Of a DNA stretch of 64,000 nucleotides, positions 49,891-56,123 are shown in pieces. The stretch comes from Escherichia coli (GTDB lineage Bacteria > Pseudomonadota > Gammaproteobacteria > Enterobacterales > Enterobacteriaceae). Made by a program: the position numbers and the translations under genes. The notes beneath the pieces were generated by a model. It was given only the letters and a program-made list of their open reading frames with translations. It was not told where the DNA came from and searched no databases. Position 1 is the stretch's first letter. The number at the start of each line of letters is the position of its first letter. The stretch lies in the NCBI RefSeq assembly GCF_050920415.1, contig NZ_CP169309.1; one strand, written 5' to 3'.

Positions 49891-51193
49891 GCGCCTGTAC
49901 CTTGGCTCCGTAATCATTAATCGGCTGCCATTTCGCTGGCAGTCCGGTGAAATCTGCTTGCGCTACGCCAAGACGTACCGCCTGATCAATAACAATGCGC
50001 GCAACGTCAAAGTGACGTGCACGCGGATACTGTGACAGATATTCGCGTACCACCAGACCAAGATCCAACGGCACTTGTCTGGTTTTGTACACGGCAAGTT
50101 GTTCTTCGATGATCGCCGCCAGCTGTTCGCGGATCTCGTTAAACTCTTCGTACTCCAGATCCTCAGGAAGTTCCCCAGTCACCTCTTCATCGCGCAGTGC
50201 CATCTCTTCGTCACGCATATCCAGCAGACGATCGGCATTGGCATAAGTTAGCGCCCACGGTTCATCAAAATAGGTTTGTACCGACTGACGTAACCGCTGA
50301 GCAAAGACGCGGTTTTTATCCATATCGATAGCGGTACGAATAAATTTGTGTACGTGGCGGTCGTAGCCAATCCATAAGTCGATGGATTGCTGGCCCCAGC
50401 TGATAATACGGTCAAGTTTGCTTTGCAGATCGAACACCAGACGATCGACGAAATGCAGATCATCATGAGTCATCGTCGCATCCTGAATGCGTAACAGATT
50501 AGCCTGCAATTTATCACCTGCCGCTTCCAGCGTATCCTGCAATTCACGCAGCGTTCCGGAAGTTTCCGAAAGCAACAATTCGCAGCTGGAAATCGCCGCC
50601 CGCCAGTCTTTGTTCAGCAACTGGGCGATATCATCTTTCACCTGCTGCTGCTGTTCGTCCATCAGACGTTGCGTCAGGTCGATGCTGTCGAAAATTTCTG
50701 CTACCGAATATTTCAGTGGCGCATAGACATTACGGTGCCAGTGAAACTCATCACCGCCCTCTTCGGCGGCATCTGCCGCGCGTTTCAGTTCGCCCGCCAC
50801 AATCGACAACTGCATAGAAAGGCGCAGCGTCGAAAACTCGCGCTGACGGATGTAGTAATCGGTAATACCGATGCCAAGCGGCGTCAGACGGTAAATTGCG
50901 TTCCCTTCAGCCTGCTCGCTGGTAAAGCGGTTCAGCAGACGTTGACGCACCATGTCGTTGATCGCGTTGTTGGCGCGCACGCCGATGGTTTCGCTGGTTT
51001 GCTCAAACGCATCACTCACATGGCGGAATGCATCCACCAGCTCGCCTTCACTCATCTCACCATCCAGACGCTCGCCGTTCAGCGTGGCAACTGCCAGCAG
51101 AAAAGAGAGTCGGTCTACCGGCAGCGAGATGGAGAAGTCATTTTTTCTGGCCCAGGCAACCAGTTCGGGGACTGTCTGGGAAAATTCACTCAT
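49871..51193 (-). CDS. mukF: chromosome partition protein MukF (kleisin)
   Basis: 440 aa [22 protein letters not shown]... Confidence 0.95.
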
Positions 51194-51975
51194 ACTTTAT
51201 CCTTGCTCTGCGGTTTGCGCGCGGTGACATGAATATAACGCCCCAGGGTAATATACGGTTCCTGACGGCAATAACGCGTTTCTAATTCAAGTAATGCTTC
51301 ATAGCAGTCGCGCTGCTGGTGCTTCTCGCGCAGGTAATCATGAAACACGCGAACGCCGGTCTTACCCATAATTTGCCAACCAGCTTCTTCCAGCCACAGA
51401 TAAACCTGCGCCGGGTCGCGTGGATAATCTGGCGAAAGCGTCCGTTTTTTCTTTTTCGGCATTCCCGCCTGCACGTAATCAAAATTCCCGGCGACCATGT
51501 TATGCATCAGCAAGCCGTGCGCATTGTAGAACATTAACGACAACACACCGCCTGGACGTAACACTGACCACAGGGTCTGCAATACGCTGCGGGGATCGGC
51601 CACCCACTCGAGCACCGCATGGAACAATATCAGATCAACGGGCGTTTCCAAATGCGAAGCAACATCCTGAGCGGCGCAATGTATAAATTGCATGTTGTCG
51701 CTCACACCTTTTGCTTCTGCCGCCTGTTTTGCGCGGTCGATCATCTGCGCTGAAAGATCGCATAAAATGACCTGATGCCCACGCTCGGCCATTTTGATTG
51801 CGGTCTGCCCTTCTCCACCGCCAGCATCCAGCACACGCAGTTTTTGCGAGCCCATTTCCGCCAGCACGCGATCGAGATCCTGCCACAGAATAGCCTGTCG
51901 AAGCTGCCCTTTGGTGGTGCCGTAAATGTTACGGGAAAACTTTTCCGCAATATCATCAAAATTGCGATCCTGCAT
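51190..51975 (-). CDS. cmoM: SAM-dependent tRNA methyltransferase CmoM (SmtA)
   Basis: 261 aa from [13 protein letters not shown]...; LDAGGGEG methyltransferase motif; 4-bp overlap with mukF. Confidence 0.9.
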
Positions 51976-52110
51976 TGCTTTCTCCACCGGTTGGCTAAGA
52001 CGTTTTCTGATAAAGACGCTATTTTGTCACAGCCACGGCGAGAATGAACCCGTCTGGTGTAATATCGCTGGCGATCCCTTGCTATATGGTCAAAAAAGGA
52101 ACCAGAAAGG

Positions 52111-52890
52111 ATGCTTTTTACACTGAAAAAAGTGATTGGCAATATGTTGCTGCCACTTCCGCTGATGTTGCTGATTATTGGCGCTGGCCTGGCGCTGCTG
52201 TGGTTTAGCCGTTTTCAAAAAACCGGGAAGATTTTTATTAGCATTGGGTGGCTGGCGCTCTTGTTATTGAGTTTGCAACCGATAGCCGACCGCCTGCTGC
52301 GTCCCATCGAAAGCACCTATCCGACATGGAATAATTCGCAAAAAGTGGACTATATCGTGGTGCTCGGAGGTGGTTATACCTGGAACCCGCAGTGGGCACC
52401 GAGCTCTAATTTAATCAATAACAGTCTGCCACGCCTGAATGAAGGTATCCGCTTATGGCGCGAAAATCCGGGATCAAAACTGATCTTCACGGGAGGCGTA
52501 GCAAAAACCAATACGGTGAGTACAGCCGAAGTAGGTGCCCGAGTTGCGCAATCGCTGGGCGTGCCGCGCGAGCAAATTATCACTCTGGATTTGCCAAAAG
52601 ATACCGAAGAAGAAGCTGCGGCAGTGAAACAGGCAATTGGTGACGCACCTTTCCTGCTGGTGACCTCCGCATCACATCTGCCGCGGGCGATGATCTTTTT
52701 TCAGCAGGAAGGGTTAAATCCGCTACCAGCCCCGGCGAATCAGTTGGCCATCGACTCGCCGCTTAATCCGTGGGAACGAGCTATCCCTTCTCCAGTCTGG
52801 TTAATGCATAGCGATCGTGTTGGATATGAAACGCTTGGCCGCATCTGGCAGTGGCTGAAAGGTTCGTCAGGCGAGCCACGGCAAGAGTGA
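52111..52890 (+). CDS. elyC: envelope biogenesis factor ElyC (DUF218)
   Basis: 259-aa ORF with N-terminal transmembrane segments. Confidence 0.9.
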   Translation: MLFTLKKVIGNMLLPLPLMLLIIGAGLALLWFSRFQKTGKIFISIGWLALLLLSLQPIADRLLRPIESTYPTWNNSQKVDYIVVLGGGYTWNPQWAPSSNLINNSLPRLNEGIRLWRENPGSKLIFTGGVAKTNTVSTAEVGARVAQSLGVPREQIITLDLPKDTEEEAAAVKQAIGDAPFLLVTSASHLPRAMIFFQQEGLNPLPAPANQLAIDSPLNPWERAIPSPVWLMHSDRVGYETLGRIWQWLKGSSGEPRQE

Positions 52891-53760
52891 TTTTGATGCC
52901 AGATCGAAGTTGCGCCGACTAAATCGTCCGGTATTAACCAGTTGCGCAACTTCATCCCATAACACATACAACCAACGCCGCCAGATGAACGACTCCGCCA
53001 CTGGCGCGCGTTGCAGATAACTCCAGAGCAAATCTTCCGCCAGAGAATTATCCATTAGTCGGAACAGTTCGTATTCTCGCGGTGCCCAAAGCATTAGTCC
53101 CGGTCCGACCATCGCCAGTAACTGATCGCTGCGCGAATCTTTCAGCATGCTGCCTAAACAGAAGTTACCGTGAATCAGCACACAATTGTCGTTAAAGCCT
53201 TCAAATAATGCCGGGAGACATTCACGGGTGCGAAACAGGATCCGCTTATCTTGCATCGTTAGACCGGTGTTATTGAACTGATTGAGCGTAGTCCATAGCA
53301 CTTCAACATGTTGCCGGTACCATGAGGGCCAGAAATTTTCCTGAGTATTGTCGACCGCGCCGACGCAACCACGACTGTCCTGACGGTGCCAGGCCAGTAA
53401 GGCTTCAACGATTTGGTCTTTGAGTTGTTCCCAGCGTTCTGGTGTTCGGGCTGGTGCCTCCACCGAAACACCACGCATTCGCTCCAGTAGCAGGACATCG
53501 GGGCCGGGGTGTTCTTCATGCGTCATCACACCATAAATAGTCGGCATACGGACAGTCCCACTTCTTGCCAGCATGGTGGTTTTCCATGCCAGTTGTCGGG
53601 CTCTTCCGGGCGCACTAAAGCTTCTTGCCATTAACGGCATTGGGTTTCCCTGGCTGTCATACAAAGCCCACAACGCCGTATCCGCTTTTTCATTGACGCA
53701 CTCAATACGACTGAGTTTTTCGCCCAGTAAATGGCTTAATTCGGCACGCAGCTGTTCCAT
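52867..53760 (-). CDS. ycbJ: uncharacterised kinase-like protein YcbJ (aminoglycoside phosphotransferase-like fold, tentative)
   Basis: 297-aa ORF MEQLRAELSHLLGEKLSRIE...; family assignment from memory. Confidence 0.8.
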   Translation of the reverse strand: MEQLRAELSHLLGEKLSRIECVNEKADTALWALYDSQGNPMPLMARSFSAPGRARQLAWKTTMLARSGTVRMPTIYGVMTHEEHPGPDVLLLERMRGVSVEAPARTPERWEQLKDQIVEALLAWHRQDSRGCVGAVDNTQENFWPSWYRQHVEVLWTTLNQFNNTGLTMQDKRILFRTRECLPALFEGFNDNCVLIHGNFCLGSMLKDSRSDQLLAMVGPGLMLWAPREYELFRLMDNSLAEDLLWSYLQRAPVAESFIWRRWLYVLWDEVAQLVNTGRFSRRNFDLASKSLLPWLA

Positions 53761-53913
53761 TCAGATTACCCTCATAAAAGCTACTGCTTTCATAATGAGC
53801 GCCAATATAAAAGATGTCACCTGAATGAGATCAATTGTTGAAAAGAAAAATTGAGGAAAATCGTAACGGTACGACACTCCTCCCAAAATTGGCTGGAGTG
53901 TCGTGAAGTGAAA

Positions 53914-54839
<926 letters not shown>

Positions 54840-54890
54840 AGTTCCTCCAGATGGATCGGGTTATGAATGCATAAATCTTATCATAATCAT

Positions 54891-56123
54891 TTATGCGACG
54901 GGGTCTATTTCCCAGCCGGCGCGGCAATCAGTAAAGAGGCCTTGCGGGCAGCGTCCTAATGTCACCCGCGTTGCCTGCTGCCAGTTAGCGAAATCAGTAA
55001 TCGCCTGACGTAACCCTTTTTGCAGCGTTGTCGTTGGTTTAATGCCTTCCTGTAACCACAGAGAGATAACTTCAAGGATGCCTGTCTGGCGATGCATTTT
55101 GGCATCCATTCGCCCAACTAATTGCCCACGATGTAATAACGGCAGAACAAAATAGCCATACTGGCGTTTCGGCGCTGGGGTATAGCACTCCAGCCGGTAG
55201 CTAAAATCAAAAAGCTGCTCCGCGCGTTTGCGATCCCAGACAACAGGATCAAAAGGCGAAAGTACCGCGCTGTGCGTTGCAGTGAGCTTTCCGGCGAGCG
55301 CGCGTTCGAGTAGCGGCAGCAAATCAGCATGCAGCCAAAGATTGCCCAATTTTTCAACATGCACAGCAATGATTTGCTGCTGTTCAGCCCTCGCTTCGCG
55401 CCAAGCCGCCAGTGCCGGACGTTTCAGCCGATAGTAATCTGCCAGCCACTGTTCGCGGAATATGCCCAGGCTACGCGCACTGTTATCCAGCATGATGATT
55501 TCTGCTTCTGTTTGCGAAACGAGATCGCGCTCATCATCCCAGTCAGGCATGACACGGTGGGTTAAATCATAAACGCGCTGGAAGTTGCGCCGTTCAATCA
55601 CCATCACCTTTCCGGCAGTAAATAAACCTTCCAGATGCCGTTTATGCGGCTTCCATTCCCACCAACCGCTTGCACCTTTACGAGAATGCTCGAAATCGGC
55701 TGAACGTACCGGCCCCTTATCATGAATATGTTGAATTAACTGTGCAATTTCTGCCGCATGTTCCTGCATCCAGGCGTCTTTGTATTTCCAGCCCATTTTT
55801 TCAGGTGCCAGCATGCGGTGGCGAATAAGACGAAAATCGCTACGTGGCATAAAGCAGGCTTCATGCGCCCAGTATTCCATTAATTCGCCACGCGCCAGAG
55901 ACTCATCCAACCACTGCGCAGGATAATTTCCCAGACGACTGAAAAGCACCAGATATGGACTACGGGCAACAATATTGATGGTATCGATTCGCAGCAAGGA
56001 CATGCGGGAGATCGTTGCCGGAATATCCTCCAACGACGCTCGACGGCGGGGTTTGTTTAACAGGCCTTGCGCGGCAAGGTGAAGATTACGCGCATCAGCA
56101 AGGGAGAGGTGCGGCAGCGACAT
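54891..56123 (-). CDS. ycaQ: winged-helix DNA glycosylase YcaQ
   Basis: 410-aa ORF recognised as YcaQ. Confidence 0.85.
   Translation of the reverse strand: MSLPHLSLADARNLHLAAQGLLNKPRRRASLEDIPATISRMSLLRIDTINIVARSPYLVLFSRLGNYPAQWLDESLARGELMEYWAHEACFMPRSDFRLIRHRMLAPEKMGWKYKDAWMQEHAAEIAQLIQHIHDKGPVRSADFEHSRKGASGWWEWKPHKRHLEGLFTAGKVMVIERRNFQRVYDLTHRVMPDWDDERDLVSQTEAEIIMLDNSARSLGIFREQWLADYYRLKRPALAAWREARAEQQQIIAVHVEKLGNLWLHADLLPLLERALAGKLTATHSAVLSPFDPVVWDRKRAEQLFDFSYRLECYTPAPKRQYGYFVLPLLHRGQLVGRMDAKMHRQTGILEVISLWLQEGIKPTTTLQKGLRQAITDFANWQQATRVTLGRCPQGLFTDCRAGWEIDPVA

Follow-up and report, generated by a model that had tools for sequence, protein, structure and literature searches.

The gene ycbJ is a core gene of Escherichia coli and of the Enterobacteriaceae generally, and its product is annotated everywhere as a 'phosphotransferase' (RefSeq label 'ycbJ: YcbJ family phosphotransferase'). 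The copy studied here lies on a stretch of 64,000 nucleotides of the E. coli contig NZ_CP169309.1 (assembly GCF_050920415.1), which was analysed as a whole and is referred to as the window. Its 297 residues are matched from end to end (1-297 of 297) by the NCBIfam equivalog NF007890 (YcbJ) with 565.9 bits, far above the cutoff of 319. The locus raises the question whether YcbJ can transfer phosphate at all. The original prediction, made by eye from the sequence, had placed an Asn at the position of the catalytic Asp and suggested that the protein could be inactive or use a different mechanism. The results obtained here make it likely that YcbJ is a pseudokinase without phosphotransfer, which binds a small ligand or a partner in a remodelled cleft under low oxygen.

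The register of the former active site was found to be the same in all alignments (Table 1). In the phmmer alignment to the human fructosamine-3-kinase (FN3K), HGNfclGS of YcbJ lies below HGDlwsGN, LIHGNFCLGSML below LLHGDLWSGNVA and aMVGPg below iiYDPa. Comparison of 34 YcbJ orthologues with 33 canonical relatives by hhalign yielded a probability of 100% and an E-value of 3.3e-47 over 291 aligned columns. This alignment is gap-free over residues 160-238, catalytic loop included, and puts R46, L57, N199, S204 and G219 opposite the five catalytic residues. In the canonical relatives, which share 23-42% mutual identity, these five residues (K61, E72, D217, N222 and D237) are invariant; the remaining invariant columns are P88, G112 and H215. 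From the HGD of the canonical catalytic loop and the five catalytic residues, YcbJ keeps only His197 (with Gly198, in HGN). The codons of H197 (cac), G198 (ggt), N199, S204, G219, R46 and L57 were checked by hand in the window sequence. The Asn seen by eye is thus confirmed at the position of the catalytic Asp: phmmer, a profile of 67 family members and hhalign agree, the Asp is invariant in the canonical relatives, and the profile alignment proposed as a check placed no Asp at the catalytic position of YcbJ. The original prediction had noticed a single replaced position, and four further residues as well as the Gly-rich loop are also gone.

The fold and the family were established by sequence, profile-profile and structure comparisons, which agree. 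The AlphaFold2 model of YcbJ has a predicted local distance difference test score (pLDDT) of 93.8 and a predicted template modelling score (pTM) of 0.89. When compared to the PDB with Foldseek, it matched human FN3K with an E-value of 2.8e-13 and a template modelling (TM) score of 0.72, while the other best matches were the putative FN3Ks of T. fusca and H. somnus and APH(2'')-Ia (TM ~0.7). All of the 50 top PDB matches listed were FN3K, putative FN3K or APH(2''), with TM scores of 0.64-0.73. Human FN3K was also the best PDB match of phmmer with YcbJ alone, at an E-value of only 0.008. The profile built from 67 family members matched it with an E-value of 4.4e-15 and, in the same register, the FN3K-type structures of H. 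somnus, T. fusca and Arabidopsis. Pfam APH (PF01636) was reached by YcbJ with 28.8 bits (cutoff 23.2), and Pfam Fructosamin_kin (PF03881) was not reached by the window protein alone in the Pfam scan; within the family, 61 of the 67 members match APH and 51 match Fructosamin_kin. The NCBIfam APH(3') model gave 12.4 bits at a cutoff of 205. YcbJ therefore has the FN3K/APH kinase-like fold, as had been proposed. Among the families of this fold, FN3K lies nearest to it, and not the APH or choline kinases at large that the original prediction had named.

The FN3K family (PF03881) comprises human FN3K and FN3KRP and the plant and bacterial ribulosamine/erythrulosamine 3-kinases. YcbJ shares its bilobal kinase-like fold and several motifs of the C-lobe, namely W..W of the substrate loop, the H of HGD, the E.[DE]L segment and LY..[FW], and the strand xDP of FN3K corresponds to xGP in YcbJ. 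In contrast, K41, the alphaC Glu, D217, the loop Asn, D234 and the Gly-rich loop of FN3K are all missing from YcbJ. The FN3K-specific Trp219 is Cys201 and the substrate-contacting His288 is Gln273. With APH(2'') and APH(3') (PF01636), the likeness is at the level of the fold, with a Pfam APH score above threshold; these enzymes are farther from YcbJ in sequence than FN3K is, and their catalytic residues are likewise absent from YcbJ.

Operationally, we regard as a pseudokinase any protein with a kinase fold that lacks at least one of the beta3 Lys, the catalytic Asp and the DFG Asp. YcbJ has the fold, lacks all three and has been maintained by selection. Since every catalytic feature of FN3K is absent from it (the Asp of HGD, the Mg-binding Asn and Asp, the beta3 Lys, the alphaC Glu and the Gly-rich loop), while the fold and the profile are those of the family, YcbJ is filed as an FN3K-derived pseudokinase and not as a phosphotransferase. 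For human FN3K, either D217N or D234N alone was reported to leave no activity on DMF or glycated lysozyme (PMC11754801). Replacement of five residues, two of them at these positions, favours inactivity among the two options of the original prediction, and the additional loss of both metal ligands and the Lys makes a different mechanism less likely. Crown-group YcbJ, the window protein included, is expected not to bind Mg-ATP, while the forms of Erwiniaceae and Pectobacteriaceae, in which the Lys-Glu pair is kept, may bind nucleotides in a metal-free manner. As regards catalysis, these residues make the label 'phosphotransferase' almost certainly incorrect, and it would be misguided to look for a kinase substrate of YcbJ.

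The family is small: among 1.84 billion representatives searched, only 201 matched at E <= 0.001, many of them fragments. A gap in identity separates the YcbJ orthologues, all at 32% or above, from the canonical relatives, none of which exceeds 28%. In the genome scan, the best 80 of 289 relatives all exceed 80% identity and all belong to the Enterobacteriaceae, and wider taxa were sampled separately. The order lpxK-ycaR-kdsB-ycbJ-(elyC)-cmoM-mukFEB is common to E. coli, Plesiomonas and two further loci, L081 and L083 (the latter 294-1190 of Logan SRR29828246, 44% G + C). The shared position between kdsB and (elyC) cmoM-mukFEB supports orthology. MukF of L081 and L083 is 75-79% identical to that of E. 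coli, which suggests that both represent deep Enterobacterales-like lineages.

The closest non-orthologous proteins are canonical relatives from metagenomes (P0200, P0217, P0222 and others), with 19-23% identity to YcbJ and the same length and order of secondary structure. Unlike in YcbJ, GxGxxG, K, E, HGD, N and D are all invariant in them, and P0200, P0217 and P0222 carry the JGI label fructosamine-3-kinase or APT-family kinase. The genomic contexts of the canonical relatives are unrelated to the kdsB-mukFEB region, and those of P0217 and P0222 gave no clue to the ancestral substrate.

Residue states were read at positions 46, 57, 199, 204 and 219 and compared on a neighbour-joining tree rooted with the canonical relatives. 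The outgroup and Plesiomonas both read KEDND, and L081 reads KENTD. Erwinia, Pantoea, Dickeya, Musicola, Serratia, Nissabacter, Sodalis and their relatives have KENSN or KENSQ. Among deep Enterobacteriaceae, the states were KINSN in Tenebrionibacter, KQNSN in Dryocola/Cedecea, KLNSG in Enterobacteriaceae ESL0689 and RVNSN in Siccibacter, and the crown Enterobacteriaceae have RLNSG, read in Escherichia, Salmonella and Enterobacter; Citrobacter, Kosakonia and others were assigned RLNSG by their identity of more than 80%. The number of lost residues is hence 0 in Plesiomonas, 2 in L081, 3 in Erwiniaceae, Pectobacteriaceae and Yersiniaceae and 5 in the crown Enterobacteriaceae, including the window. 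L083 reads HIKAA with the synteny of ycbJ, elyC, cmoM and mukFEB kept, apparently an independent complete loss of the five catalytic residues. Among the 58 orthologues tabulated, position 199 takes N, H, Q or K, and Asp only in Plesiomonas. His (HGHLTLRS) or Gln was observed at this position in P0306, P0318, P0320 and P0335, which are 76-78% identical to the YcbJ of the window. From these states, we infer as the most parsimonious order that the catalytic base and the loop Asn were lost first and the DFG Asp second, with the Lys-Glu pair lost last and only within the Enterobacteriaceae.

The orthologue of Plesiomonas shigelloides (P0286, WP_219257119.1) occupies the same position in lpxK-ycaR-kdsB-X-elyC and is 40-41% identical to YcbJ. 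Since this orthologue, unlike YcbJ, keeps K, E, HGD, N and D and has a firm match to Pfam Fructosamin_kin, it probably is an active kinase. The distribution of residue states suggests that YcbJ originated inside the Enterobacterales from an active enzyme like the one at this chromosomal position in Plesiomonas. It would have kept the FN3K-like bilobal fold and given up, in the steps named above, the residues for productive Mg-ATP binding and for deprotonation of the substrate hydroxyl. In the response to oxygen limitation, which is reported to be FNR-activated, the remodelled cleft would then probably serve to bind a partner protein or a small ligand. The full scenario goes further. It holds that a pseudokinase was born in the Enterobacterales, that the stages of its decay persist in living lineages and that it took on a new, non-catalytic and strongly selected role as ligand sensor or partner regulator in the FNR-controlled low-oxygen response. 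We put this forward tentatively, as a proposal that may be correct and falls slightly short of being favoured.

Purifying selection on YcbJ was found to be strong. When ycbJ of the window was compared with that of 15 other species, the median Nei-Gojobori ratio of nonsynonymous to synonymous substitution rates (dN/dS) was 0.03, and 0.03 was also obtained in the least saturated pairs, within Escherichia. In the same comparisons, the values were 0.016 for the essential gene kdsB, 0.06 for elyC and 0.055 for cmoM. The best conserved parts in 58 orthologues are the catalytic-loop remnant (residues 193-207), the beta8-'DFG' region (212-222), the LWAPREYDLFRL segment (223-235), the hinge and the N-terminal helix. 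Since conservation peaks in the loop remnant, beta8-'DFG' and LWAPREYDLFRL, the former active-site cleft is still the focus of constraint. Between E. coli and Plesiomonas, the identity is ~40% for YcbJ, compared to 74% for KdsB and 82% for MukF, and within the Enterobacteriaceae YcbJ evolves about as slowly as KdsB. Deep divergence followed by slow change fits a period of faster change around a functional shift. As a separate observation, the synonymous rate (dS) of ycbJ between Escherichia species (window versus L004 and L076) is 0.89-0.96, while kdsB, elyC and cmoM show 0.31-0.59 in the same genome pairs, about half of the ycbJ value. Low codon bias or past recombination could account for the raised dS.

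Published data place ycbJ in the response to oxygen limitation. The gene was described as monocistronic and classed as FNR-activated (PMC2634741), and its expression under oxygen limitation was raised 6.1-fold in Dickeya, 4.9-fold in Pectobacterium and 3.3-fold in E. coli (PMC3349551). In the window, a sigma-70-like promoter sits in the 150-bp spacer between kdsB and ycbJ. A footprint conserved in 11 genera of Enterobacteriaceae reads TTGATCTCAT..GGTGACATC, about 10 variable bases and CGCTCATTAT.AAAGCAGTAG. The TTGATCTCAT element adjoining the promoter reads TTGATCTCATTCAG in E. coli and is FNR-like with two mismatches. Counted from the sequence, this site is centred ~41.5-42.5 bp upstream of the likely start, and its TTGAT element stands at class-II distance from the -10 box. 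A full FNR palindrome was considered and rejected, as only the left half-site TTGAT is conserved across genera and the right half is not. The pattern with two mismatches is common (54 matches in the window), and the putative FNR site upstream of ycbJ is taken as a lead only. YcbJ was detected by mass spectrometry with 4 peptides (PMC6857472), and overexpression of ycbJ gave a glycogen-excess phenotype in a library screen (PMC2853380).

Some points weigh against YcbJ being a catalytically dead binding protein. A highly conserved cleft would equally be expected if YcbJ were an enzyme of a non-canonical type. Conservation extends to Asn199 and Ser204 themselves, which could be a sign of new chemistry. 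Proteins without canonical residues have repeatedly proved active in unexpected ways, among them WNK, CASK, HER3 (also with Asn for the catalytic Asp) and SelO. In addition, the order of losses was read from an unbootstrapped neighbour-joining tree of the YcbJ protein itself, and the link to envelope biogenesis, drawn only from synteny inside one bacterial order, is a weak hint.

The alternative that survives best is that YcbJ is still an enzyme, which performs phosphotransfer or another transfer (for instance AMPylation or a metal-independent reaction) via non-canonical residues. Candidates would be Arg46, Asn199 and Ser204 or the clade-specific invariant residues R18, E20, R94, D137, D212 and R261. 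Such an enzyme would be in line with the cleft elements being the best conserved parts of the protein, with the conservation of residues 199 and 204 in their new state across families, and with the many invariant polar residues of the orthologues that are missing from canonical relatives. The Lys-Glu pair retained in the forms of Erwiniaceae and Pectobacteriaceae and the precedents of active 'pseudokinases' point in the same direction. We nevertheless consider this reading unlikely. Five canonical residues, both metal ligands among them, are replaced and the Gly-rich loop is gone, whereas in the closest solved relative either of the two single exchanges was enough to abolish detectable activity (PMC11754801). 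With N, H, Q and K all accepted at position 199 in different lineages, a structural or binding role of this residue is more plausible than precise catalysis, and the substrate contact made by His288 in FN3K falls on Gln273.

A role at the level of RNA was considered as well, in which transcription of ycbJ converges on elyC as an excludon that tunes elyC, the protein being secondary. The coding 3' ends of both genes overlap by exactly 24 bp in 66 of 84 loci, and ycbJ-elyC is on the list of convergent excludons detected by RNA-seq (PMC12288877). Against this, a dN/dS of ~0.03 over 297 codons indicates selection on the protein sequence, and the protein itself was seen by mass spectrometry (PMC6857472). 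The overlap is also missing in Plesiomonas (30-bp gap) and in L083 (107-bp gap), and L081 keeps ycbJ without elyC at that position. An excludon as the main function of ycbJ is thus very improbable. The overlap does bear on genetics: the Keio deletion of ycbJ also inactivates elyC (bioRxiv 10.1101/2025.02.11.637708), so that published ycbJ-deletion phenotypes are confounded, and high-throughput phenotypes of the Keio mutant do not allow attribution to YcbJ.

That ycbJ is a decaying relic of a kinase on its way to a pseudogene might be read from the progressive loss of catalytic residues, and is effectively refuted, with hardly any probability left to it. The 297-codon frame is intact at 80 of 80 species-level loci recovered, the gene is found in 5425 of 5426 complete E. 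coli genomes, its dN/dS lies below the values of elyC and cmoM, the promoter is conserved and the protein was detected. Least credible of all, and refuted, is an alignment artefact with the catalytic Asp lying nearby, which the weak match of the single sequence to Pfam APH would allow: three methods agree on the register, hhalign is gap-free and of high confidence around the loop, residues 193-206 of YcbJ contain no Asp or Glu, and the Plesiomonas orthologue has its Asp in exactly the same column.

An FN3K-derived pseudokinase resembles known pseudokinases of eukaryotes and bacteria (HER3 with HRN, STRAD; bacterial Ser/Thr families, PMC12599244), in which a kinase fold without catalytic residues is likewise under selection. 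Those proteins derive from protein kinases, whereas YcbJ would derive from a small-molecule (FN3K-like) kinase, and they lost one or two motifs where YcbJ lost all. YcbJ is not included in the 2025 review of bacterial pseudokinase families (PMC12599244). We found no published description of YcbJ as lacking catalytic residues, and a search of the available literature yielded neither biochemical nor clean genetic data on it; in the papers examined, enterobacterial ycbJ is mentioned in passing or in tables only. The 'ycbJ' of B. subtilis (mphK, a macrolide kinase) is an unrelated namesake, and its literature was set aside. Pseudoenzymes are common in general; bacterial pseudokinases that arose from small-molecule kinases have hardly been described. 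What makes YcbJ exceptionally clear-cut is that a single locus presents both an apparently active orthologue and intermediate states. If the proposed reading is true, the locus offers a natural and experimentally tractable series for the evolution of pseudoenzymes, and a core y-gene of E. coli would be assigned a mode of action.

Table 1 Features of the ycbJ locus with their positions in the window
Feature	Position	Strand	Basis
ycbJ coding sequence, protein of FN3K/APH fold	52867..53760	-	297-aa open reading frame, ATG start, YcbJ equivalog match
Degenerate Gly-rich loop CVNEKADTAL, residues 21-30, opposite lGxGfYGxVy	53671..53700	-	alignments to canonical relatives
Arg46 codon aga, replaces beta3 ATP-binding Lys (human FN3K K41)	53623..53625	-	alignments
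Leu57 codon ctg, replaces alphaC Glu pairing with beta3 Lys	53590..53592	-	alignments
Catalytic-loop remnant VLIHGNFCLGSML, residues 194-206	53143..53181	-	gap-free alignment to LIHGDynxxNiL consensus and human FN3K LLHGDLWSGN
Asn199 codon aac, replaces catalytic Asp (human FN3K D217)	53164..53166	-	alignments
Codon 203 (Gly)	53152..53154
Ser204 codon agc, replaces Mg-binding loop Asn	53149..53151	-	alignments; Asn invariant in 33 canonical relatives
Gly219 codon gga, replaces DFG-type Mg-binding Asp (human FN3K D234)	53104..53106	-	alignments
Putative ycbJ promoter: TTGATCTCATTCAG (FNR-like, good left half-site), -35 GTGACA, -10 CATTAT	53792..53834	-	consensus scan, footprint
Footprint conserved in 11 genera	53785..53840	-
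Overlap of convergent 3' coding ends of ycbJ (-) and elyC (+), 24 bp	52867..52890	both	open reading frame coordinates
cmoM (smtA) open reading frame	51190..51987	-
ycaQ	54891..56123

The neighbours elyC and kdsB, on which the original prediction had remarked, do lie beside ycbJ according to the open reading frames and domain matches of the window. Upstream of ycbJ, kdsB is encoded in the same orientation. elyC (DUF218) converges on ycbJ, and cmoM and mukF follow past elyC. On the other side, ycaR, ycaQ (AlkZ-like) and lpxK are found past kdsB.

For each of ycbJ, kdsB and elyC (region 51000..55000 of the window), ~5420 of the 5426 complete E. coli genomes show only 95-99% identity, and no more than 2-7 genomes, such as those of strains MFDS1022581 and N96, reach 99% or above. 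The window represents a rare, divergent lineage of E. coli. Because kdsB and elyC are as diverged as ycbJ (equally 95-99% identical), we rejected the idea that this strain carries an exceptionally divergent allele of ycbJ; the whole region stems from the rare lineage. Compared to the representative of the main E. coli cluster (P0001), the YcbJ of the window shows 6 amino-acid differences in total. At position 203 in the catalytic-loop remnant it has Gly (NFCLGS), where the main E. coli cluster, E. fergusonii and Salmonella (NFCLRS) as well as Enterobacter (NFTLRS) have Arg.

Two minor observations concern other genes of the locus. The gene ycaQ (AlkZ-like DNA glycosylase) lies between ycaR and lpxK in the window; Plesiomonas (L086) and L081 lack it there and have ycaR-kdsB immediately after lpxK. 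The open reading frame of cmoM begins with a GTG; an in-frame ATG lies four codons further downstream and is probably the true start.

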